61,339 nt of DNA from a virus (lineage: Duplodnaviria > Caudoviricetes): positions 1 through 61,339 of IMG/VR virus record IMGVR_UViG_3300021959_000036. One strand, given 5' to 3'. The notes beneath the pieces are model-generated. The model made no database searches, was not told the origin of the DNA, and saw nothing but the letters and a program-made list of their open reading frames with translations. The translations under genes and the position numbers were made by a program. Every line of letters begins with the position of its first letter. Positions within the stretch are counted from its first letter, which is position 1. Below, in pieces: positions 7,513 to 56,338 of this stretch.

Positions 7513-8317
7513 TAGAGTCTACTGGGAATATGACAACGGAGACTGGTGGAGGCCTAGTCCTTACTCTACTGCCAGCGTAACCTGTCCAAAATACAGAAGA
7601 TATGGACCTACAATAAGGCACGATCTATTTACTCTTGTAGAAAAATTCGTAGAAAAGTACCCTAAATATAATTACTATATTGCCATGAGTGGGGGTATAG
7701 ACTCTGAAATTACCGCAGAAACTTTTTTTCAACTAGGTGTCCCTTTTGAAGCGGTTAGTTTGTCGTTATTTGAAGCGCAAAATGCACATGATTTAATATA
7801 TGTAAAAGCTTTCTGTGAAAAGAGAGGAATAAACTATAACTTTATAGACTTAGATATCGTAGACTTTGTTAATGTAGTAATTCCAAAAGCAGTACAGTTT
7901 GGACAGTTTACAAATTCTTTGAGTCAAGTAGCTTTAACATATCTTTTTGAATTTATGACAGAAAAAGATATACTTATATTCTCTGGACATAATCCCGATT
8001 TTTCTAAGCTTGGTATCGGTTGGTGGGAAGACTCACCTAATTTAGTAAAGTATGCTATTAATACAGATAATAACTTTTTTACTTTCACAAGTTTAGAACC
8101 TATTTTTATGCATTATCTTTGTAACTATGACCCAAATCAGCCGGGGGATAAGGATAATACTTTTATATATAACTGCTATCCCAATTTAAAAAAGAGAACA
8201 AAACGAACTGGTTGGGAAGTATTAGGACACATTCAATTCAAATATAAAGAACTTTTAGATACACCAGTATTACCTGATGGATCAAAAGGCGGACAGGTAT
8301 TTTTAACATGGAAATAA
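7499..8317 (+). CDS. PP-loop (adenine nucleotide alpha-hydrolase) protein
   Basis: AMSGGIDSE motif. Confidence 0.6.
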   Translation: MLEINRVYWEYDNGDWWRPSPYSTASVTCPKYRRYGPTIRHDLFTLVEKFVEKYPKYNYYIAMSGGIDSEITAETFFQLGVPFEAVSLSLFEAQNAHDLIYVKAFCEKRGINYNFIDLDIVDFVNVVIPKAVQFGQFTNSLSQVALTYLFEFMTEKDILIFSGHNPDFSKLGIGWWEDSPNLVKYAINTDNNFFTFTSLEPIFMHYLCNYDPNQPGDKDNTFIYNCYPNLKKRTKRTGWEVLGHIQFKYKELLDTPVLPDGSKGGQVFLTWK

Positions 8318-10146: not shown

Positions 10147-12447
10147 GTGTCAAACATAGAAGTAGTAAAAAGGAACGGGTCAAAAGAACCCTTAAATTTA
10201 GAAAAGCTACATAAGATGACTTTTGAAGCGTGTGAAGGTCTAAGTAGTGTTTCTGCATCGCAGATAGAAATGAATTCTGGTATTCAGTTTTATGATGGAG
10301 TATCAACAAAAGATATTCAAGATATATTAGTTAAAAGTGCTGCAGACCTAATATCTTTAGATACTCCAAATTATCAATTTGCTGCAGCTAGATTACTACT
10401 GTTTGCTCTTCGTAAGGAAGTTATGGGACACTTTGACTATATTTCTTTACCAGAAATGATTAATAGAAATATTAAAAATGGCGTATATGATGAGAGTATC
10501 TTAGAGTGGTATACAGCAAAAGAGATAGAAAAAATAGACTCTTATATTAAACATCAAAGAGATCTTGAATTTACATATGCGGGACTTAGACAAGTAGTGG
10601 ATAAATACTTAGTACAAGATCGTTCTAGCGGACAAATTTATGAAACTCCTCAGTTTATGTACATAATGATTGCTGCAACTATGTTTGCACAATATCCTAA
10701 AGAAACGAGACTAAACTATGTTAAAAAATACTACGATGCTATTTCGACATTTAAAATTAATATCCCAACTCCTGTTATGGCTGGCGTTCGCACTCCTATC
10801 CGCCAGTTTGCTTCTTGTGTGCTTGTTGATGCTGACGATACTCTTCAGTCCATTTTTAGTTCTGATACGGCTATCGGATATTATACTGCACAAAGAGCCG
10901 GAATTGGAATCAATGCTGGAAGAATTAGAGCAATCAATTCTAAAATTAGAGGAGGAGAAGTCCAGCACACAGGAGTCATCCCATTTCTTAAAAAGTTTGA
11001 AAGTACGGTTCGTTGCTGCACTCAAAATGGTGTACGGGGCGGGTCTGCGACTGTCCATTTTCCTATTTGGCACAAAGAAATTGAAGACATCCTAGTTCTT
11101 AAAAACAATAAAGGTACAGAAGATAATCGTGTTCGTAAACTAGATTATTCAATTCAAATTTCAAAACTATTTTATGAAAGACTAATTGAAGACAAACAAA
11201 TTTCTTTATTCTCGCCACATGACGTTCCGGGACTATATGAAGCATATGGTACAGATAAGTTTGATGAATTATACGAAAAATATGAACGAGCCTATTCTGT
11301 ACCAAAGAAAAAAGTAAAAGCACAAGATATATTTATGTCTCTCTTAAAAGAACGAGCAGAAACTGGTCGTCTGTACATTATGAACTTAGATCATTGTAAT
11401 TCGCACTCATCTTTTAAAGATAAAGTATATATGTCTAATCTGTGCCAAGAAATTACCCTCCCAACAAAACCAATCCAACACATTGATGACAAAAACGGAG
11501 AAATTGCTCTTTGTATTTTAAGTGCTTTAAATCTAGGTAAAATTAGTAAGCTAGATGAAATGGAAGAGCTTTCTGATATAGCAGTTCGTGCACTAGACGA
11601 GCTAATTGACTTCCAAGGATATCCAGTTGATGCCGCAGAAAAGTCTACAAAAGCTAGACGTTCATTAGGTGTAGGATATATCGGAGTAGCACATTATTTA
11701 GCTAAAAACAAAGTAAAGTATGACTCTCCTGAAGCCTGGCAGCTTATGCATGATACTACAGAAGCATTTCAATATTATCTAATTAAAGCTTCTGTAAATC
11801 TTGCAAAAGAAAAAGGTGCTTGTGAGTATTTTAATCGTACCAAGTACCATGATGGTATTCTACCGATTGATACATATAAAAAAGAAGTAGATGAAATTAT
11901 TCGTGATCCTTCTTTAAAATATGATTGGGAGCGACTAAGAGAAGAAATCTGTAGACACGGTATGAGACACTCTACTCTTACAGCACAAATGCCCTCAGAA
12001 TCATCTTCTGTAGTATCAAATGCTACAAATGGTATTGAACCTCCTCGTGGTTATTTATCAGTTAAAAAGTCTAAAAAAGGACCTCTAAAGCAAATTGTTC
12101 CTGGGTACTATCACTACAGAAATTACTATAGTCTACTATGGGACTTACCTTCTAATGAAGGATATATCAATATTGTAGCTGTAATGCAAAAATTCTTTGA
12201 TCAAGCTATTAGCGGTAACTGGAGTTATAATCCAGAACACTTTGACGACAATGAAGTTCCTCTTTCTGTAATGGCTAAAGACTTACTTAGTACTTATAAA
12301 CTAGGATGGAAAACGTCTTATTATCAAAATACTTATGATGCTAAGAGGGACGAAGATGAAGAGCCACAACATAGTATTGGATGGCACGACGAAACAGAAA
12401 TGAAAGAACAAGAAGACGAAGAAGAGTGTGAAAGCTGTACAATATGA
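10147..12447 (+). CDS. nrdA: ribonucleoside-diphosphate reductase class Ia alpha subunit
   Basis: N-terminal ATP cone (VVKRNG), FASC, SNLCQEI, C-terminal CESC. Confidence 0.97.
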   Translation: MSNIEVVKRNGSKEPLNLEKLHKMTFEACEGLSSVSASQIEMNSGIQFYDGVSTKDIQDILVKSAADLISLDTPNYQFAAARLLLFALRKEVMGHFDYISLPEMINRNIKNGVYDESILEWYTAKEIEKIDSYIKHQRDLEFTYAGLRQVVDKYLVQDRSSGQIYETPQFMYIMIAATMFAQYPKETRLNYVKKYYDAISTFKINIPTPVMAGVRTPIRQFASCVLVDADDTLQSIFSSDTAIGYYTAQRAGIGINAGRIRAINSKIRGGEVQHTGVIPFLKKFESTVRCCTQNGVRGGSATVHFPIWHKEIEDILVLKNNKGTEDNRVRKLDYSIQISKLFYERLIEDKQISLFSPHDVPGLYEAYGTDKFDELYEKYERAYSVPKKKVKAQDIFMSLLKERAETGRLYIMNLDHCNSHSSFKDKVYMSNLCQEITLPTKPIQHIDDKNGEIALCILSALNLGKISKLDEMEELSDIAVRALDELIDFQGYPVDAAEKSTKARRSLGVGYIGVAHYLAKNKVKYDSPEAWQLMHDTTEAFQYYLIKASVNLAKEKGACEYFNRTKYHDGILPIDTYKKEVDEIIRDPSLKYDWERLREEICRHGMRHSTLTAQMPSESSSVVSNATNGIEPPRGYLSVKKSKKGPLKQIVPGYYHYRNYYSLLWDLPSNEGYINIVAVMQKFFDQAISGNWSYNPEHFDDNEVPLSVMAKDLLSTYKLGWKTSYYQNTYDAKRDEDEEPQHSIGWHDETEMKEQEDEEECESCTI

Positions 12448-17121: not shown

Positions 17122-18233
17122 TTGCTTTTCATACCCAATACTATAGAGGATTGGGTCATGCAATGCGAATTAAGTATATCTCTGATAACTTACCAGCAAA
17201 TTCGTTTGTAATGATAAATCAATTATTTAATCCTCCTATTAAATATAATACCGAACATTCTTACTATTTAGAAGAAAATCCTGAAACATTAGAAAATGAT
17301 TATAAATTTCTGATGCAACGAGAGAGGGTTAGAAGAAGGTGGACTAAACTAGTAAAAATTTTAGATAAGCACCCAGAGATAACAAAATTGGTGTGCGAAG
17401 GATTTCCTTTTTGTCGTCAGCAATTTTCCTATGAATACTTTTCAATGTTTGAAGAATGTAAAAAAAGGGGAATTCAAATTATAATTAGTATAAGAGATTT
17501 TCCTTGGGACGAACCTCATTACGAAAGTTTACAAGATTGGGTTTCTAAAACTATAAATCAAACTATATTACACTATGATTGCAAAGTTCTAGTTCATGGA
17601 GATGAAAATTATCTACCCTTAATGGCAGACGCAATTAGAAACTACAACTGGTCAGAATTAGAAAAAGATTTAGAAAATAGAGTATTTTATACAGGTTACG
17701 TATGCAATCCCGATATTAAAGAACATAAAAAAGAAAATAATAATGTATACATAAGTTGTGGATTAAATAAAGAAGAAGGATTTTTTATATATAGTAAAAT
17801 CTTAAGGTCAGTCGTTAAAAAGTTTCCTGATCTTAATTTTATTGTACCTTTGGGAGATGCAGAGTTATTCTCTAAAATTGGAGGAAGAACTTCTAATAAT
17901 GTAGAGATAGTTAATTATATACCTAATTTATCTAAAAAATTAGAAAGTTGTACTGCTTATATAACTTATGGAGGATATAATAGTACGACGGATATTTTAA
18001 AAGCTAAAATACCTTCTATTATAATACCGCGACAAGACGGACATAAATTAGAACAACTTATAAGATGTTATAAATTTGAGGAGTTTGAGTGGTTTAAGGT
18101 GTGTTCGTACCACAGTCTTTTTAATATTGATGTTTATTTAAAAAGGCTCATAGAAGAGGATAACTTTCCAAAACAAAACGATATCAATTTAGAAGGAGCT
18201 ATAAATAGTGCCAGACAAATTGAAAACTTTTAA
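17118..18233 (+). CDS. GT-B glycosyltransferase (COG4671 / GT28 C-terminal-like)
   Basis: GLGH, GFPF, YTGY, GGYNST, IIPR...EQLIR motifs. Confidence 0.75.
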   Translation: MIAFHTQYYRGLGHAMRIKYISDNLPANSFVMINQLFNPPIKYNTEHSYYLEENPETLENDYKFLMQRERVRRRWTKLVKILDKHPEITKLVCEGFPFCRQQFSYEYFSMFEECKKRGIQIIISIRDFPWDEPHYESLQDWVSKTINQTILHYDCKVLVHGDENYLPLMADAIRNYNWSELEKDLENRVFYTGYVCNPDIKEHKKENNNVYISCGLNKEEGFFIYSKILRSVVKKFPDLNFIVPLGDAELFSKIGGRTSNNVEIVNYIPNLSKKLESCTAYITYGGYNSTTDILKAKIPSIIIPRQDGHKLEQLIRCYKFEEFEWFKVCSYHSLFNIDVYLKRLIEEDNFPKQNDINLEGAINSARQIENF

Positions 18234-18759
18234 TAAATTAGAATCTAACTGGAAAAAAGGACTAAGAGAAACTGAATTTAAATTCATAGAATGGATAATA
18301 AAAAATGAAAGATATGATTTATTTAGAAGTAAGCAGCCTAGAAAAAATTGGATTAGAGAAACTCTTTTAGAAAAGAAGTGTGCTTCTAAGTTTAAAACAT
18401 GCAATACTCTTGTTATGGTTGGGTCAGGAATGTATCCATATAGTTTGGTAGATTTAAATAAAGAGTACCCTAACATGAAAATGATAGGAATTGATTTTGA
18501 TGAGAAGTGTGTAAAAATTAGTCAGTTCCTAATAAAGAAAAGTAGAATAAAAAATTTAGATATAATTCACATGGACGGAAAAGACTATGACTATTCTAAT
18601 CTAGAACACGAAGATTTAGTATTTTTTAGTATAGATGTTGTAGGAATAGATGGTGTTTTTCAAAAAGTTATAGAAACAAGTAAGGCGCAGCCTTTTATCT
18701 GCGCCCCGGGTAAACATGCTTGGTTTAAAAACTCTTTTGGTGATTATTTAAAAAGTTAA
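18208..18759 (+). CDS. class I SAM-dependent transferase, nicotianamine synthase/CntL-like
   Basis: VMVGSGMYPYS resembles NAS FIGSGPLPLTS; IGIDFD motif II; DG motif. Confidence 0.55.
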   Translation: MPDKLKTFNKLESNWKKGLRETEFKFIEWIIKNERYDLFRSKQPRKNWIRETLLEKKCASKFKTCNTLVMVGSGMYPYSLVDLNKEYPNMKMIGIDFDEKCVKISQFLIKKSRIKNLDIIHMDGKDYDYSNLEHEDLVFFSIDVVGIDGVFQKVIETSKAQPFICAPGKHAWFKNSFGDYLKS

Positions 18760-18894
18760 TTTTTTTGGTTTCTTATTCGTAGAGATACCCTTACCAGAAA
18801 TTAAGCGTACAGCAATAGAATCTTTTTTCTTTTTGCTGTACGCTTTTTTATTTATCTTGGGCATAGATCGTTGTAAAAACGCGGGAATATCCAT
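18748..18894 (-). CDS. 48-aa basic peptide with FtsZ C-terminal-like N-terminus (not in ORF track)
   Basis: Manual translation MDIPAFLQRSMPKINKKAYSKKKKDSIAVRLISGKGISTNKKPKKLTF; ATG overlaps upstream stop (TAATG). Confidence 0.5.
   Translation of the reverse strand: MDIPAFLQRSMPKINKKAYSKKKKDSIAVRLISGKGISTNKKPKKLTF
18803..18849 (+). terminator. inverted repeat at convergence of + and - transcription units
   Basis: AAGCGTACAGCAA (18803-18815) / TTGCTGTACGCTT (18833-18845), 13-bp perfect stem running into a T-tract. Confidence 0.55.
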
Positions 18895-19133
18895 TATTCG
18901 CCTTTTTGTTTTACAACTTTTTTACCGTAGTTTAGTTGTCTTTGAGGATACGTTCCTAGATCAAGTCCGGTTCCGTTATATACCGCTTTGAGTTCTCTAG
19001 AAGCTGAGTCTCCTTCACGATACTTCATAACAGTTTTTTGCTTACGAACAGGATCATACTCTTCGGGCACACCATAACGGTTATCACCTATCATAATAAC
19101 CCTACGTTCTCCTTTTCCTGCTGCTCCTGCCAT
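18894..19133 (-). CDS. small basic hypothetical protein
   Basis: 79 aa, SD GGAGGA upstream. Confidence 0.65.
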   Translation of the reverse strand: MAGAAGKGERRVIMIGDNRYGVPEEYDPVRKQKTVMKYREGDSASRELKAVYNGTGLDLGTYPQRQLNYGKKVVKQKGE

Positions 19134-19433: not shown

Positions 19434-19607
19434 TTAGGATTTTCCTAACTTTCCTTTTCTTTTTTTGCCTGATTTTCTCTTAATCAAACCACGAGCCTTA
19501 AGTCTAGCTTCTGCTGTTGCTCCGATAGACTCTCCTCGACGATATTTAGCAAGCATCTTGTTAAGATGAGATTTCATTTTCTTGCCTTTGTAGCTTAAAT
19601 CAGCCAT
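19434..19607 (-). CDS. 57-aa highly basic protein (not in ORF track)
   Basis: Manual translation MADLSYKGKKMKSHLNKMLAKYRRGESIGATAEARLKARGLIKRKSGKKRKGKLGKS; fills the gap and has a promoter directly upstream. Confidence 0.6.
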   Translation of the reverse strand: MADLSYKGKKMKSHLNKMLAKYRRGESIGATAEARLKARGLIKRKSGKKRKGKLGKS

Positions 19608-19612
19608 ATTAA

Positions 19613-19641
19613 ATTATATCTTGCTAGTGTCTTTTTAGCAA
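19613..19641 (-). promoter_or_regulatory. sigma70-like promoter, probably giving a leaderless mRNA
   Basis: TTGCTA-17 nt-TATAAT, with the -10 only 5 nt before ATG 19607. Confidence 0.6.
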
Positions 19642-19879: not shown

Positions 19880-20047
19880 TTACTCTGATTTCCAAACAGT
19901 CCATACTCCATATGCTATAGCTAACCAACAAATAAGATTCATTGGAATAATTGCTGAAAAGAATAGTCCAATAACCCCTACAGCTATAAGAGCGCCGCCA
20001 TCCCAAGATGTCCGTTCTTTAATTCTATTTTTAATCCATTCAATCAT
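19880..20047 (-). CDS. 55-aa membrane protein, holin-like (not in ORF track)
   Basis: MIEWIKNRIKERTSWDGGALIAVGVIGLFFSAIIPMNLICWLAIAYGVWTVWKSE; two hydrophobic segments; GGAGG SD and ATGA coupling. Confidence 0.55.
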   Translation of the reverse strand: MIEWIKNRIKERTSWDGGALIAVGVIGLFFSAIIPMNLICWLAIAYGVWTVWKSE

Positions 20048-20184
20048 TTCTTTTTACCTCCTTTTGGTTTTTTGTACCCAGAAGCATAAGCAGCCGCAGC
20101 TTGTTTAGATGCTTGCTTTTTTGTTGGGTAAGTTTTACCAGAACTTCCCCAACGATAGCCACCTTTTACTTTTCTAATAGGCAT
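20044..20184 (-). CDS. 46-aa basic protein (not in ORF track)
   Basis: MPIRKVKGGYRWGSSGKTYPTKKQASKQAAAAYASGYKKPKGGKKK; SD AAGGAG. Confidence 0.65.
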   Translation of the reverse strand: MPIRKVKGGYRWGSSGKTYPTKKQASKQAAAAYASGYKKPKGGKKK

Positions 20185-21134: not shown

Positions 21135-22115
21135 TTAAGTCCCAAGCCCTGCTTCAAATACAGTCTTTTCTCCAGTAGTTAAATTCTCCTCAATCTTTTC
21201 TCTACTACTTAATAATTTTCCACACTGAGACTTACAAAGTTTAAAACTTCTGTCATATCCTTGTAAATATGCTTTTAACTTATTCCAGTATTCATAGGAT
21301 ATAATAGTTTCTAGAGGAACTTTTGTAGCATTAAACTTTTCTTCTATGTCGTCTACATAATAAAATCTATCATTACTTTTATCAAAGTAGTGTGCTCCTG
21401 TCCAACAACATCTAAATACTAGACCATTTGGAGCAACATACCACTTTCCCCATTCTTCCCACGAACATATAATTTGTTTTGGGATAGAAGATAAGTCTGT
21501 TTTCTTTTTAGCATGAACATAATCTCCAGATTTTGGTGCTGCAAAATCACGACCAGTTTTAACAGTAGAAAAAGAATGAAAACCTTCTGAGATAGCTAGT
21601 TCTTTAGCTTTTTCTACTTGGTGCTTATTATGTTCAAAAACTATATACTTCCAATGTACTTGTGGACGTTTAGTCGCTATAACAGAACGAGCATTATTAA
21701 ATACATTTTCAAACCTAGTATTAATTCTGTAGATAGAGTGTGTATCTTCTAAACCATCTAAATCAAAATTAATAATATCATCTGACGTTAAAATATTTCC
21801 TACATCGGTCCAGTAGCTAGAATCATGTATGCCACCATTAGTATGAATATTTAAACGAGTTCCATATGTTTTAACATATGTAATAATTTCACGAAACTCT
21901 TTATTCATAATAGAGTCTCCAAAATTACCATTTAAAACAATCCAGTCAAGTTGTTCTAAAAATTCTGGATAAAATACTTTTTTAAATCTATCTAGTGTAT
22001 ATGTATATTGTTCATCATTTAAATTTATTCTTAGAGGTTTTAAACGATGACACGCAGGACACTTTGCATTACATCTAAAAGTTAATTCAGTAGTTATTTG
22101 TCTATATTTTCGCAT
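21135..22115 (-). CDS. radical SAM protein with C-terminal SPASM/twitch-like Cys cluster
   Basis: CNAKCPAC, GNFGD, HTNGG, DGL; C...GLVFRCC...CKSQC. Confidence 0.85.
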   Translation of the reverse strand: MRKYRQITTELTFRCNAKCPACHRLKPLRINLNDEQYTYTLDRFKKVFYPEFLEQLDWIVLNGNFGDSIMNKEFREIITYVKTYGTRLNIHTNGGIHDSSYWTDVGNILTSDDIINFDLDGLEDTHSIYRINTRFENVFNNARSVIATKRPQVHWKYIVFEHNKHQVEKAKELAISEGFHSFSTVKTGRDFAAPKSGDYVHAKKKTDLSSIPKQIICSWEEWGKWYVAPNGLVFRCCWTGAHYFDKSNDRFYYVDDIEEKFNATKVPLETIISYEYWNKLKAYLQGYDRSFKLCKSQCGKLLSSREKIEENLTTGEKTVFEAGLGT

Positions 22116-49719: not shown

Positions 49720-52700
49720 TTAGGCGAGTGTTCTGATTGTTGCAGCGTAGCCGTAGGTGGAAGAAACGTTTGCACCTGCGCCTGAGCCAGTGGTTGAGAG
49801 AGCCTTGAAGTCAAAGCGTGTGCTCATGTACATCGCTGTGACCTGCTGGCGGGGTTCGTACTCGCTCTCGATCTCCATACCACGTCGTTCTGCGATCATC
49901 CAGCCTGGCTTGTAGACTAGAGCACCGATGTCGGCTGAGTTTGAACCAACGTTATCAAGGAATTCAGTAATAACAACTGGAATACCATAGATTGCACCAA
50001 CAGAACCTGTGAGGTATGTTGCGTTTGGACCAAACTTGTCAACTGTGCGGAAGTCTGAAGTTGTGACTAGCTCGTTGTAACCTTCAATTGTGGTGAGGTA
50101 TACGAGGTGATCACCAAGCTGTAGACCATATTTGCCCATAAGAGCGCGAGCTGATGCGATATTTGCGGCAGAAGCCTTTGTATCACCATCGGCGGTGCGA
50201 ACTGATAGACCGTCTGTAGCAACTTGGTTAACCATTGTGGTAATACCCTTAACAACAGAGGCATAAGTTGATGTGCCACCTGGGTTAGCTGTGAATCCAG
50301 TAAGAGCACCAGTACCACGAAGGATTGCCTTATCAATTGACCGTGATAGACGACGGGTTGCTGCGCGACGGAGGAAGTCGATTAGAGGAAGAACTGTATC
50401 CTCTTCTTCGTCCTTGGCAAGATGGGTTGTAACCATGAACTTGTGTGGTGTAAAGTCTACTGACTTAATTGCGTTCTGGTTTGAGGTTGGGACGTTTGTG
50501 GTATCACCAACACCTGTGGCATATGTGCCAGAAGCGAATTGTGCTACCTGATCGTCGGTATCCTCATCGGCTACGGGGACACGGAATGTCTTCGCATCGA
50601 CCTGGATTCTATCGAACATAGGAGCGATAACGAGCTGCTGCTCCATTTCTTCGTAGATATTTGTTGAGAAGTTGCTTAGGAACTGATCAACTGAAGTGAC
50701 GGCCTTAATCTGATTACCGAGTTTGGTATCAAATGGGTCACGACGATTGAGAGCCTTAGCAAGAAGGAAAGCATTAGCCATTTCCTTTTCAGAATACTTG
50801 CTTGAAGTCTTCTGAGCTTGATAGACATGCTTGCTATCAGAGATTGCTTTAATCTCGTCTTTATATTTTGCGATCTGAGACTTGAGTTCATCAAGTTCTT
50901 CACGAGTTTGACGGGTTGATTCACCGTGGCGGTCAACTTCGTCGGATTCTTTTAGAACAGCTTCACCAGCTTTTTCAACTAGCTTTTCTGTGTTGTTTTC
51001 TCCAACTTTTACACTGGAGACTTCCTCTGCGGCCTTTTCTACAACTGTTTCAGTTGCAGGAGCAGCCTTTTCAGTCTCTAGTACAATTGGATCACCTGCA
51101 TTTTCGGTTGCCATTGTTTCATTCTCCTTTATAGTCTTAGTAGTCTTATGACCGGTTACTAATAAGGCTAGATCCTTGGAAGTCTCTTCGCCATCGTTGC
51201 AGTCAATACTCTTAAGCTTTTCGATGTTATTAATCATCATTTTAGCAATGTGGTAGTTTGTATCATTCCATTCTGTGGATGGGACAGTGGTTAGGTTAAT
51301 TGTTTTATTCAGCTTTTCCTGTAAAAGTTCACTATTTTTAATAGCTTCGTTATCTTTTACTGCATAAAGCTCTTGCTCAGAAAGTGTGACTAGGTTTTCA
51401 AAATCTTCTTTAATTGAAGCTCTTTCTCCGTCACTTAGATTTTTAAATTCTGTTACTGAAACATCTAAATCAAATTGTGATCCGATGTCCCAAAAATTCA
51501 CTACTGATAAATTTTCAGCAGGGATCGTAACTGTATTATCTAATGATTTTCCATTTAAGTCAACTTCTAAAAATTGAAAAATAGGGTTTTGGGCAGTAGC
51601 AATTTTTACAGTCTGATACCTTTTACCCTCATTTTTTACAAAAGCACCATTTTTAATTTGTGCGGTTTCTGCACTAAGAAGATTAACAAAAGGAATTAGC
51701 TCATAAGGATCAGATGAAAGGTTTACGACCTCTTCATCATCATCTTCCTCAGATAGTTTCTCAATGTCTACGTCTTCAGCAAGATTGACTTCCTTAATAA
51801 TTTCCTTCTCTTCTTCTTCAGCGGCAGCAACAATGACTTCTTCTGTTTCGTTTGTTTCAACGTCTTTAGTCATAGTATTCTCCTCTTCAGAATATAGAGT
51901 AACAGATGAATAATTAGGGTTTTTAGACCCACCGTTTGCCTCAGTCTCACTAGGAGACATAGGACGGGCTTCTCCATCTGTCTTATCAGGTGAATCAACA
52001 TTGTTAGAAGGTTGAACTAAGAACACAATTTCGTGACTGTGCCCTTCTGCTTCTTCAATAGTATAATTCACAATTTTGTGATAATGCTTTTGGCCATGAG
52101 AGGAATAGGTAGTAACACCATTGCCACTATCATCCATTTCCATAGTATGATAATGACCAGCTTTGCTACCAGTTATTCCGACATAAATGCCTTCCATCAT
52201 TTTCACTTCGTCTTTTAGACTAGCCTCTTTGAGACTATTCTTAAAGTCTTCATATTCATCGTTAGATTCAAAACTTTTTCTAACGCTGAATAAGCTTTCT
52301 TGGTTGCAAGGAACGGATACAACACTAATTTCGTGAAGTTCTACATCAGTAATTTGTGTTGTGTCTGTATTTCGATCATAGCGACCATCCTTAACGCGGA
52401 ACCCTACAGAAAAGCTCTTTAAAGCTCCGTCATTAATAAGTGTTTGCACACCGTGAAGTTTTTCTGCTGCGTCACTAACGTATGCCTCAACAAAAATACC
52501 TTTACGATCTACAGAAATCTTTTGAACACGCCCAATTGGTTTGTTATGATCGTGTTGATAAAGAAGAACAGGATTTTTGCGATAATAATCAACGCCTTTG
52601 GCCCATGCATTGGCTGTAATGATATCACCCGCTCGATCTTTATCGGTGGTGTTAGCATAGCCTGCAATAACTAGACCTTTCTTCTTTTTAGTAGCACGTT

Positions 52701-52743
52701 TCTCAACCGTTAGAGGGCTGTATACATGAAACATTTTTTCCAT
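49720..52743 (-). CDS. prohead protease (HK97 family) fused in frame to linker and major capsid protein
   Basis: IAGYAN, DRAGD, LYQHD, SFSVGF, EISVVSVPCN; C-terminal HK97-fold MCP (G.IYGIPVV, R.DF). Confidence 0.92.
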   Translation of the reverse strand: MEKMFHVYSPLTVEKRATKKKKGLVIAGYANTTDKDRAGDIITANAWAKGVDYYRKNPVLLYQHDHNKPIGRVQKISVDRKGIFVEAYVSDAAEKLHGVQTLINDGALKSFSVGFRVKDGRYDRNTDTTQITDVELHEISVVSVPCNQESLFSVRKSFESNDEYEDFKNSLKEASLKDEVKMMEGIYVGITGSKAGHYHTMEMDDSGNGVTTYSSHGQKHYHKIVNYTIEEAEGHSHEIVFLVQPSNNVDSPDKTDGEARPMSPSETEANGGSKNPNYSSVTLYSEEENTMTKDVETNETEEVIVAAAEEEEKEIIKEVNLAEDVDIEKLSEEDDDEEVVNLSSDPYELIPFVNLLSAETAQIKNGAFVKNEGKRYQTVKIATAQNPIFQFLEVDLNGKSLDNTVTIPAENLSVVNFWDIGSQFDLDVSVTEFKNLSDGERASIKEDFENLVTLSEQELYAVKDNEAIKNSELLQEKLNKTINLTTVPSTEWNDTNYHIAKMMINNIEKLKSIDCNDGEETSKDLALLVTGHKTTKTIKENETMATENAGDPIVLETEKAAPATETVVEKAAEEVSSVKVGENNTEKLVEKAGEAVLKESDEVDRHGESTRQTREELDELKSQIAKYKDEIKAISDSKHVYQAQKTSSKYSEKEMANAFLLAKALNRRDPFDTKLGNQIKAVTSVDQFLSNFSTNIYEEMEQQLVIAPMFDRIQVDAKTFRVPVADEDTDDQVAQFASGTYATGVGDTTNVPTSNQNAIKSVDFTPHKFMVTTHLAKDEEEDTVLPLIDFLRRAATRRLSRSIDKAILRGTGALTGFTANPGGTSTYASVVKGITTMVNQVATDGLSVRTADGDTKASAANIASARALMGKYGLQLGDHLVYLTTIEGYNELVTTSDFRTVDKFGPNATYLTGSVGAIYGIPVVITEFLDNVGSNSADIGALVYKPGWMIAERRGMEIESEYEPRQQVTAMYMSTRFDFKALSTTGSGAGANVSSTYGYAATIRTLA

Positions 52744-54414: not shown

Positions 54415-55083
54415 TTAATTTTCAGAAGCTAAGAAAGGGGAACGAAAATCCTGAATTACTTTCCATCTTTTACTAAAATGATCAGGATGCTTGTTCAATC
54501 CTACTTTTCCCTCCTCTAATAATGAAACTTCAGTTTTAATTATTTTGGGTCGGGTTTTGTAGTAATCACTCATAGATAAAGATACTTGTATGTCATCTCC
54601 TCTATCCTTTGTACCCCAAGGCTCTAAGTAATCTTTCCATATAGTTTTTAGATGGGGGATAGATACAGATAAACAGGCTCCTACTGCAATGTCTGATTCA
54701 GTATCAATGCACCACTCACTTGACAAGTCTTCATAACGAGAAACCTTGTTTATTCCTGACCTTCCATAAATGGATACAAGTCTATCAGGAGTTTTTCTTA
54801 TCTCTGTTACCAGTTTCATTATACAGTGAAAGCTTGGATTTATATCATCATCTAAAATAATAGCATATTTATAATCTAAGTCTTTAGCAAACTTCCAACG
54901 CTCAATACACCACCCATTTTTTTCTTTATTTACTACTCCAGCACCTTTAATTTGATGTAGCCTATAAGAGGGATTATTATTGATGATATAAATTGGTAAT
55001 TTACCTTTAAATTTTTCTACTAAATAATAGATGTTACCAAGTCTTTTATAATTTAAGATTATTAAAACAGTATCTTTAAGCAT
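54415..55083 (-). CDS. GT-A fold glycosyltransferase
   Basis: ILNYKR, INNN, ILDDD, RGDDI motifs. Confidence 0.7.
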   Translation of the reverse strand: MLKDTVLIILNYKRLGNIYYLVEKFKGKLPIYIINNNPSYRLHQIKGAGVVNKEKNGWCIERWKFAKDLDYKYAIILDDDINPSFHCIMKLVTEIRKTPDRLVSIYGRSGINKVSRYEDLSSEWCIDTESDIAVGACLSVSIPHLKTIWKDYLEPWGTKDRGDDIQVSLSMSDYYKTRPKIIKTEVSLLEEGKVGLNKHPDHFSKRWKVIQDFRSPFLASEN

Positions 55084-56338
55084 AAATAGATGCCGAAGTC
55101 TTTACATAAGTATAAATGCCGTACCTAGCGGCATCAGAAGCATGAGAATTATCATCATGAATTGTTTTTGGGTTTTCTGTTTTAGGATTCCATTTATAAT
55201 TAGCCATTGATGTAAAAGTTTGAAAACCAGTTTCAGAATCAAAAACTAAACGATCATGGTCTATAAGAGCACCTAAATAATTTATACCGTCTTTTACAGA
55301 CTTTATTGCATTCTCACAAAAAATATCATAGTCATAAGCAAAATCAGCTTTAAGTTGTTGAGCAGCAGAGTCTATGTAAATCATTTCTACTTCCCACTTT
55401 TCTTCTAGTTCTTTAATATTTTCTGCAAGTTCTGAGGTTGTTACCTCTCCAGAAATATATTCATCTATAACATAAAAATATTCACCGTCCGTGGCTATCA
55501 CAATAAAAGCATTTAAATCACGATAGCCCACATCAAGTCCTGCAATAACTTCAAAACGATTAAGATTTTCTTTTACCCAAGTTAAGTCTTGCAGATGACG
55601 ACTTTCATCTAAATTATAGACCTGCATTTCTGTAGTAGTCCAATCACACTCATACTCTTGAGCAAACATCTTATTAGAAATAGAATGACGAGCTTCTTCG
55701 ATATCTTTTGTACTTAAGAGAGGATTAGATCTCCACGTAAATAATCCTGACCCCCAGTCGTCAAACTCTGGATCTTGGCCACGAAGATAGTAAGAGTAAA
55801 GATAATTTGTTTTACCACGGGGAGTAGATATAAAGAGTGCCCTAGAATCGGGGTAGGTAGAAAGAGCAGGACGTAGATCACGAGTAAAATACTCATCATC
55901 AGGGATGATTGCCGCCTCGTCTACAATTATAAGATGAGCAGCACGCCCCACAAGTGAGTCTCTGTTGTTAGCTGATAAGAGGCGAAAGGTAGAACCATTG
56001 ATAAGTTTAACAACTTTATCTTTTTGGTTGAATCTTTCCACTTCCAGTTGTAAATTTCTGATGATATCTGTGACATAATCCCAAATAATTGATGATAGAG
56101 TAAAGTTAGGAGCTACTACCATCACTTGTTTCCCAGGTTCTAAAAGTTTAGCAAACGCTAAAATACCAGCAGACAGAGACTTACCAGTTCTTCTTGCAGA
56201 TATATGAGTCCAGAAACGATGGTTTTCTAGTCCTTCAACCATCCCCCATTGAGACTCATTAAACTGTATTCCGTTATGTTCTCCTACAACAATTTTATCA
56301 AGTAACCTTTCTACAGGGACTTTAAAATATTTATCCAT
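55076..56338 (-). CDS. terL: terminase large subunit
   Basis: ARRTGKS, IVDEAA, ISTP, QEY, GLDVG, HASDAARY. Confidence 0.95.
   Translation of the reverse strand: MDKYFKVPVERLLDKIVVGEHNGIQFNESQWGMVEGLENHRFWTHISARRTGKSLSAGILAFAKLLEPGKQVMVVAPNFTLSSIIWDYVTDIIRNLQLEVERFNQKDKVVKLINGSTFRLLSANNRDSLVGRAAHLIIVDEAAIIPDDEYFTRDLRPALSTYPDSRALFISTPRGKTNYLYSYYLRGQDPEFDDWGSGLFTWRSNPLLSTKDIEEARHSISNKMFAQEYECDWTTTEMQVYNLDESRHLQDLTWVKENLNRFEVIAGLDVGYRDLNAFIVIATDGEYFYVIDEYISGEVTTSELAENIKELEEKWEVEMIYIDSAAQQLKADFAYDYDIFCENAIKSVKDGINYLGALIDHDRLVFDSETGFQTFTSMANYKWNPKTENPKTIHDDNSHASDAARYGIYTYVKTSASIYA

Follow-up and report, generated by a model that had tools for sequence, protein, structure and literature searches.

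The stretch of DNA analysed here, referred to as the window, is a virus record of 61,339 bases (IMGVR_UViG_3300021959_000036), rated 53% complete and with a G+C content of 32-39%. Replication and nucleotide-metabolism genes occupy its plus strand up to position 18759, and structural genes lie on the minus strand down to position 18748. Where the two arms meet there is a micro-open reading frame (micro-ORF) of 48 codons plus stop, encoding a basic microprotein. The frame had been pointed out in the original prediction, which left its strand unstated; it is on the minus strand. The microprotein reads MDIPAFLQRSMPKINKKAYSKKKKDSIAVRLISGKGISTNKKPKKLTF and contains 14 Lys and Arg residues versus 2 Asp and Glu residues, with a net charge of approximately +12. 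The proposed TAATG coupling to the upstream gene is also present: the ATG at 18892-18894 overlaps the TAA at 18894-18896 of an ORF of 79 amino acids (aa), designated p79. A hairpin lies within the coding sequence, and a methyltransferase-like gene converges on its 3' end (Table 1).

The micro-ORF is conserved at this locus in viral contigs, metagenomes and protein clusters, a point that had been left for checking. It lies directly behind the 79-aa gene in eight of nine viral contigs with p79 relatives, the ninth (L009) having no such ORF. A metagenome scan gave 11 confirmed loci from 289 pattern matches, partly on the same contigs as the viral loci, and the micro-ORF was present in all 11. The TAATG overlap is retained even in lineages without a Shine-Dalgarno-like run (L006, L022). 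The micro-ORF always follows the 79-aa gene, while on the convergent side L022 has different neighbours and L016 an additional gene; this constancy on one side and change on the other indicates that the micro-ORF belongs with the 79-aa gene. Longer or fused forms of the micro-ORF were sought, and none was found. Searches of Pfam, PHROGs and NCBIfam returned no family for the micro-ORF, Rfam gave nothing near its gathering score, and full-length alignment against PDB sequences gave no match. No cultured phage matched the locus in DNA or protein, including in a tblastn search of 50,697 phage records at E values up to 10.

A search of 5.8 billion proteins recovered 23 cluster representatives, 22 of which start with M-[DENQ]-[IL]-P-x-F-L-Q; the remaining one was called from the second Met. 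The second Met (18864) had been named as a possible real start. However, position 11 is Met in 19 of the 22 representatives, Ile or Leu in three (P0004, P0015, P0020) and Val in L022/L023, and codons 2-10 are under purifying selection. Because position 11 is not Met in some members, the comparison indicates that the first Met is the true start.

Selection was assessed on 11 distinct DNA sequences, after L003, L004, L016-L019 and L023-L025 had been dropped as protein-sequence duplicates. The ratio of non-synonymous to synonymous changes (pN/pS), summed over phylogenetically non-independent pairs but unambiguous in direction, was 0.21 for codons 2-8, 0.34 for codons 2-10 and 0.13 for codons 11-22. 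All four synonymous codons (CCC/CCA/CCG/CCT) are used for the Pro of the N-terminal motif. Past the hairpin, the C-terminal tail shows eight synonymous and no non-synonymous differences between the window and L008, and two and none, respectively, between L005 and L020. Indels in several lineages leave the reading frame open, and the five other frames are closed by stops, apart from one frame in one locus. Since selection acts at the amino-acid level, the micro-ORF appears to be translated and, judged by its pattern of substitution, is a genuine protein-coding gene.

The terminator-like hairpin that was said to overlap the ORF was recovered as a stable fold within the coding sequence, at 18803-18845. 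Its folding energy is −23.4 kcal/mol (z −6.4) in the ORF sense and −26.1 kcal/mol (z −7.2) in the opposite sense, and 200 shuffles yielded no fold to equal it in either sense. Across the 11 aligned sequences, pairing holds in 90.3% of cells; sliding the partner lowers this to 19-48%. Compensatory double changes are present at three pairs (A-U to G-C, U-A to C-G and C-G to U-A), a pattern indicating that the hairpin itself is under selection. In L021 and L026, the pair at columns 63/91 is a U-G wobble in the ORF sense and a C-A mismatch in the other sense. A strong U-tract follows the stem in the plus sense only; the tail in the ORF sense is only partly U-rich. Together, the hairpin and the T-run likely form the intrinsic terminator of the convergent early arm. 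A terminator consensus scan made no call at 18803-18845, because the 17-nt loop exceeds 8 nt.

The outgroup L009, which has no ORF, carries a homologous stem that has a loop of 4 nt and lies between an A-tract and a T-tract; to all appearances this element is a textbook bidirectional terminator. This bare element suggests that the micro-ORF was written over a terminator whose loop grew to 17 nt, although a single outgroup is compatible with either gain of the ORF or its loss in L009. Like a bidirectional terminator between convergent operons, the element in the window combines a covarying, G+C-rich stem with an A-tract and a T-tract on its flanks; it differs in its 17-nt loop, in being coding over its whole length and, in L016, in being followed by a gene. 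Read as codons, the A-tract and stem of the terminator give the microprotein its Lys run and its A-[YH]-S...A-V-R residues.

Table 1. Positions of the micro-ORF and of the elements around it in the window.
Feature	Position	Strand	Basis or remark
Micro-ORF, coding sequence of a basic microprotein, 48 aa plus stop	18748..18894	-	ORF, conserved in relatives
N-terminal motif M-[DENQ]-[IL]-P-x-F-L-Q-[RQS]-[STK], codons 1-10	18865..18894	-	Conservation, pN/pS, AF2
TAATG stop/start overlap with the 79-aa gene	18892..18896	-	Kept in 20/20 rows (19 loci and the window)
Conserved hairpin in ORF codons 17-31	18803..18845		Stem of about 11-13 bp, 17-nt loop
T-run past the hairpin in the plus sense	18844..18858	+	Sequence; opposite strand encodes the K-run of the microprotein
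p79, upstream 79-aa gene coupled to the micro-ORF	18894..19133	-	30 homologues (E up to 0.001), all at least 59% identical
Convergent methyltransferase-like gene	18208..18759	+	Weak Methyltransf_31/4 matches below cut-off; overlaps the 3' end of the micro-ORF by its last 12 nt
Sigma-70-like promoter match, TTGCTA-17-TATAAT	19613..19641	-	10/12 matched; upstream of the 57/86/79/48-aa gene run
Terminator-like hairpin with T-rich tail	18682..18707	-	Inside the 3' end of the convergent gene; fold z −1.7 only

Several elements bear on transcription of the micro-ORF. The promoter scan gave two sites versus 3.6 expected in shuffles, so the sigma-70-like site is to be read as a consensus match only. 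Downstream, the hairpin at 18682-18707 is a candidate end of the micro-ORF transcript. In RNA libraries, contigs over the 79-aa gene end at 18891, 18870 and 18862 in three of four runs, 3-32 nt inside the micro-ORF, while contig X15 (18783-19101) spans p79, the micro-ORF start and the hairpin; such contigs show neither strand nor ends. In L016, a near-identical relative, a 259-aa gene of no known family (L016:2509-3288, plus strand) lies between the micro-ORF and the methyltransferase-like gene. Its start lies 3 nt beyond the stop of the micro-ORF, in the same orientation; should both be expressed from the upstream promoter, minus-sense transcripts have to run through the hairpin in L016.

The family-wide pattern of the microprotein is a conserved N-terminus followed by a variable tail. 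M1, P4, F6, L7 and Q8 are invariant in all 22 representatives. Position 2 is D in 15, E in four, N in two and Q in one; position 3 is I in 17 and L in five; position 5 is S in nine, N in five, A in four, E in two and D in two. The C-terminal tail varies in sequence and length between subgroups and is rich in Lys, Arg, Ser and Thr throughout. In the AF2 model, built from a 22-row alignment, residues 1-10 have a predicted local distance difference test (pLDDT) value of 87 with a helix at residues 5-10, and the rest is coil with pLDDT 60-70. The motif thus sits at the chain terminus beside a disordered segment, with its helix after Pro, and this Pro-capped helix is the only ordered element conserved across the family.

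With moderate confidence, we read the product as a disordered polybasic microprotein of 40-48 residues with an N-terminal docking helix. It would be translated by termination-reinitiation at the TAATG overlap with the 79-aa gene, as the overlap directly implies. The coding sequence overprints the hairpin together with the A/T tracts of the likely terminator at the close of the convergent early arm, so that the middle of the protein (KKKA[YH]S...AVRL) is shaped jointly by RNA structure and coding. The Pro-capped helix M-[DENQ]-[IL]-P-x-F-L-Q may be a short motif by which the protein docks onto a folded partner, and the polybasic tail, with its conserved composition and variable sequence, would be a binder of polyanions (nucleic acid or membrane). 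On the predicted model, the helix is most simply a docking motif and the tail a polyanion binder. Among named partners, the leading candidate, itself an unlikely one, is the pocket in which host division proteins such as FtsA and ZipA take up the FtsZ tail; it is followed by the coupled 79-aa protein.

Several observations weigh against this interpretation. The family is tiny and very narrow, with three clusters at 50% identity among 1.84 billion representatives and one spurious low-complexity match, which leaves some five or six lineages for comparison. In the central part of the protein, conservation of amino acids is inseparable from selection on the hairpin, and the pN/pS values carry the non-independence stated above. 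The AF2 model is of modest confidence, with a mean pLDDT of 68 and a predicted template-modelling score (pTM) of 0.22. Finally, RNA strand and ends are not observable from library contigs, and their uncovered parts prove nothing about termination.

The FtsZ C-terminal tail is the docking site for FtsA, ZipA, MinC, SlmA and ClpX, and the original prediction proposed that the micro-ORF mimics it, correctly quoting the E. coli tail, which ends in ...EPDYLDIPAFLRKQAD before the stop. In this hypothesis, the DIPxFL helix fills the FtsZ-tail pocket of one of these five proteins. The decoy would titrate Z-ring anchors and block division, or its basic tail would anchor whichever of them it has captured on DNA or membrane. 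The arrest of division would come late in infection, and the gene would derive from an overprinted bidirectional terminator. We consider this the most specific of the explanations and an unlikely, minority one.

For comparison, 130 Pseudomonadota FtsZ tails were read, although the phylum of the phage host may differ. They comprised 80 gammaproteobacterial genes found with E. coli FtsZ and 50 tails from an evenly drawn sample of 201 genomes of the same phylum, 197 of them FtsZ-positive; for these 50, the 30 best-scoring loci were taken, and 20 more were chosen because the genome was small or the reading frame long. P-x-[FWY]-[LIM] was present in 128 of the 130 tails, with I or V before the Pro, preceded mostly by D, and with A (101), T (25) or R (2) at the x position. 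All 80 gammaproteobacterial tails read LDIPAF[LI]R[KR]Q. Set against a core of the form [DE]-[IV]-P-x-[FWY]-[LIM], taken to define an FtsZ-tail-like motif, the phage family fits, with [DENQ]-[IL]-P-x-F-L in 22/22. Two frames in the comparison (L112, L114) are Pseudomonadota FtsZ without a recognisable tail motif, and in L153 and L154 FtsZ ends in ...IPRFLGRQNNQ, with G replacing R. In L043, a record titled Vagococcus sp., FtsZ is 97% identical to that of E. coli, which suggests a mislabelled or contaminated assembly.

The core and the invariance pattern of the microprotein fit those of the tail (E. coli ...DYLDIPAFLRKQAD). The D-I-P-A-F-L core is shared, equals that of the E. coli tail and agrees with DIPAF[LI] in 80/80 gammaproteobacterial tails. 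P, F and L never vary, x is unconstrained, and the family variation [DENQ][IL]PxFL (x = A/S/E/N/D) preserves the positions conserved in 128/130 tails. The helix is predicted to start after Pro with basic residues next, and the FtsZ peptide bound to ZipA and FtsA likewise forms a helix starting after Pro. A weak lead comes from a language-model neighbour cluster with a score of 0.79, in which 17% of members carry FtsZ_C; such scores often arise by chance. The large terminase (TerL) of the window is 41-42% identical over 97-98% of its length to those of T5-like phages of Enterobacterales, and the cultured hosts of the matching T5-like phages, among the matches listed, are Gammaproteobacteria. 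This kinship makes a host with a DIPAFL tail plausible; we infer a gammaproteobacterial host from it alone.

Other features of the motif do not fit a tail mimic. The residue directly past the F-L pair is R in 126 tails, G in two and Q in none, versus an invariant Q8 in 22/22 phage representatives, which thus have neither Arg nor Lys there. The motif is N-terminal, is not preceded by the Y-L found ahead of D in Gammaproteobacteria, and is joined to a 38-residue polybasic tail, whereas that of FtsZ is joined to a tubulin-like core. A 14-column profile of the N-terminus against 177,635 PDB sequences returned HIV reverse transcriptase and an S100P chimera (ELPGFLQS) at E ~1 and no FtsZ. Furthermore, the gene lies on the structural-gene strand, while the phage division inhibitors we know of are early genes. 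Against the E. coli K-12 chromosome the 14-column profile gave no candidates, not even FtsZ, being too short for such a search. Complex prediction of the microprotein alignment with E. coli ZipA 185-328, run without controls, gave a score of 0.02 and a mark of 0.32 and weighs neither for nor against binding.

The original prediction had allowed that a six-residue identity in a short ORF could be chance. The motif carries about 18 bits of information. The stop-to-stop frames of 40 aa or longer in the window add up to 41,056 residues, and composition predicts 1.55 occurrences of the loose motif [DENQ][ILV]P.[FWY][LIM] among them; the only one found is that of the micro-ORF. Exact DIPAFL is expected 0.002 times. 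Given this loose-motif expectation and a scan of very many windows, the single match is not beyond chance, and for a lone match the caveat holds. It does not extend to the conservation of the ORF and its motif, which, on the alignments of relatives, is beyond chance.

Known phage proteins offer a partial parallel. According to the excerpted text of the respective reports, lambda Kil (PMC3961180), T7 Gp0.4 (PMC4944311) and P1 Icd (PMC11897509) are small proteins proposed or shown to stop Z-ring formation, all targeting FtsZ itself, Kil in a ZipA-dependent manner. A decoy would differ in copying the FtsZ tail instead of acting on FtsZ itself. In view of the family and tblastn searches described above, the micro-ORF is without homology to Kil, Gp0.4, Icd or DicB. 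Literature searches on phage mimics of the FtsZ C-terminal peptide returned Kil, Gp0.4, Icd and others, with no tail mimic among the matches listed. None of six IPxFLQ-type strings was found in any article, and articles with DIPAFL-type strings concern, by their listed titles, FtsZ, cell division or degrons.

Tail-bearing ORFs do occur in phages, as illustrated by a small non-FtsZ ORF of a high-G+C viral contig (L223:7368-7568, minus strand; 110 aa from the GTG at 7697). It ends in ...VPPDDVPLDIPAFLRKQAD before the stop and has the exact 12-residue gammaproteobacterial FtsZ tail at its extreme C-terminus. This ORF has no Pfam or PHROG family and no cultured-phage match. Like the micro-ORF, it is a small non-FtsZ phage ORF with an FtsZ-tail-like terminal motif (...PLDIPAFLRKQAD), but the two sequences are unrelated: all 12 residues, including R-K-Q-A-D, are present at the C-terminus of the L223 product, versus a six-residue N-terminal match in the micro-ORF. 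By this comparison, the L223 ORF is a much stronger candidate FtsZ-tail mimic. Two other groups of loci were seen. In nine viral contigs (L160:448-1719, L166, L171, L190, L211, L218, L220, L173, L194), Lys/Glu-rich low-complexity proteins of 346-510 aa contain an internal KK[SQ]DIPAFLRKARGDKPL, with only weak PHROG matches and no assigned function. About 60 of the 80 listed loci (e.g., L159, L161, L163) share a recurrent 27-codon stop-to-stop frame ending in ...CIFRYFDIPAFLSKA before the stop. This frame is near-identical in many viral contigs and probably reflects a conserved element that is non-coding or read in another frame, and not a protein.

Slightly less likely still than the FtsZ-tail decoy is a generic cationic effector with no specific docking partner. 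It could condense DNA or serve as a polycation inside the virion; alternatively, it could aid lysis as a membrane-active peptide, in the manner of the cationic disruptin of phage phiKT. A net charge of about +12 in 48 residues and a gene at the end of the structural-gene strand would suit such a role, as would the presence nearby, on the same strand, of two further basic ORFs of small size (57 and 46 aa) and of a holin-like 55-aa ORF. However, the invariance of M1, P4, F6, L7 and Q8 exceeds what bulk charge or amphipathicity needs, the A/T tracts of the terminator dictate much of the Lys content, and no lysis enzyme was identified nearby. The neighbouring ORFs are themselves of note. The 57-aa (19434-19607) and 46-aa (20044-20184; phrog_31267) ORFs, both on the minus strand just upstream, are small and very basic, and the 55-aa ORF (19880-20047, minus strand) has a hydrophobic stretch at residues ~19-52 and looks holin-like by eye.

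It is improbable that the ORF acts only in cis, with ribosome transit through the hairpin modulating termination or antisense read-through into the convergent arm and the peptide itself being functionless. The ORF does span a covarying hairpin in a zone of convergent transcription, and columns 63/91 of L021/L026 pair only in the ORF sense, by the U-G wobble. A purely cis role does not predict amino-acid selection on the flanks of the hairpin, and purifying selection is seen both upstream (pN/pS 0.21) and downstream (eight synonymous versus no non-synonymous changes).

Very improbable is a precursor of a ribosomally synthesised and post-translationally modified peptide (RiPP) for the radical S-adenosylmethionine (SAM)/SPASM-like enzyme encoded 2.2 kb upstream on the same strand. 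The conserved N-terminus and variable C-terminus resemble a leader/core layout, and the enzyme is present in 4/4 related micro-ORF records and was not found in the L009 fragment, a single contrast with a record only 24% complete. Nevertheless, seven ORFs separate the two genes, the microprotein has no Cys or aromatic-rich core, the SPASM match is below the cut-off (E 0.047), and no RiPP recognition element (RRE) domain was seen. The enzyme (21135-22115, minus strand) is a 326-aa radical SAM protein with CNAKCPAC (CxxxCxxC) at residues 15-22 and a Cys-rich C-terminal part that gives the sub-threshold SPASM match; its best NCBIfam matches are peptide or cofactor maturases. After it comes a run of small ORFs of 289, 46, 55, 84, 57, 86, 79 and 48 aa.

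That the frame is a chance, untranslated ORF over an intergenic terminator would suit a short, A-rich, unannotated region with close relatives only, but this is highly improbable given TAATG in every row compared, mostly synonymous changes, a frame open across indels and other frames that are closed.

The remaining content of the window places the gene in its phage context. The p79 protein has no Pfam, PHROG, NCBIfam or PDB relative, its AF2 model (pLDDT 51.5) is too poor for a fold search, and no relatives of its gene were found in 185,579 species genomes. One 1007-aa ORF of the window (49720-52743, minus strand) matches both the prohead protease, at residues 11-190, and the major head protein, versus two adjacent genes in T5-like relatives; it is about 30% identical to the counterparts in T5-like phages. 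The gene pool is mosaic, with a T5-like terminase (55076-56338, minus strand) and a ribonucleotide reductase (RNR; 10147-12447, plus strand) like those of marine cyanomyoviruses and pelagiphages. The large subunit of the latter is 73-74% identical to RNRs of marine cyanomyoviruses and of Pelagibacter phage HTVC008M. Window DNA is present in estuary, marine and related metagenome runs from 13 studies. We read the phage, from its gene content and occurrence, as an uncultured marine or estuarine distant T5-like siphovirus. No tRNA was found in the window, no psbA in five related records, including a complete one of 117 kb, and no FtsZ family member in the phage.

The micro-ORF was missed by annotation and has no described relatives, yet it is clearly under protein-level selection. 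A selected RNA hairpin is formed by half of its codons as well, which makes the micro-ORF a clean natural case of a terminator-overprinted protein; with the bare terminator of L009, it may also exemplify the birth of a gene from a terminator. If true, the FtsZ-tail reading, unlikely as we judge it, would add a new phage route to interference with cell division. The decoy would be, per the literature searched, the first described phage inhibitor that copies the FtsZ tail instead of binding FtsZ, and its peptide would be a minimal tool with which to probe the FtsZ-tail pocket. Should that reading be false, the microprotein would still be a tractable example of how a docking motif is combined with a disordered basic tail, from a phage lineage that is abundant in estuaries and the sea.

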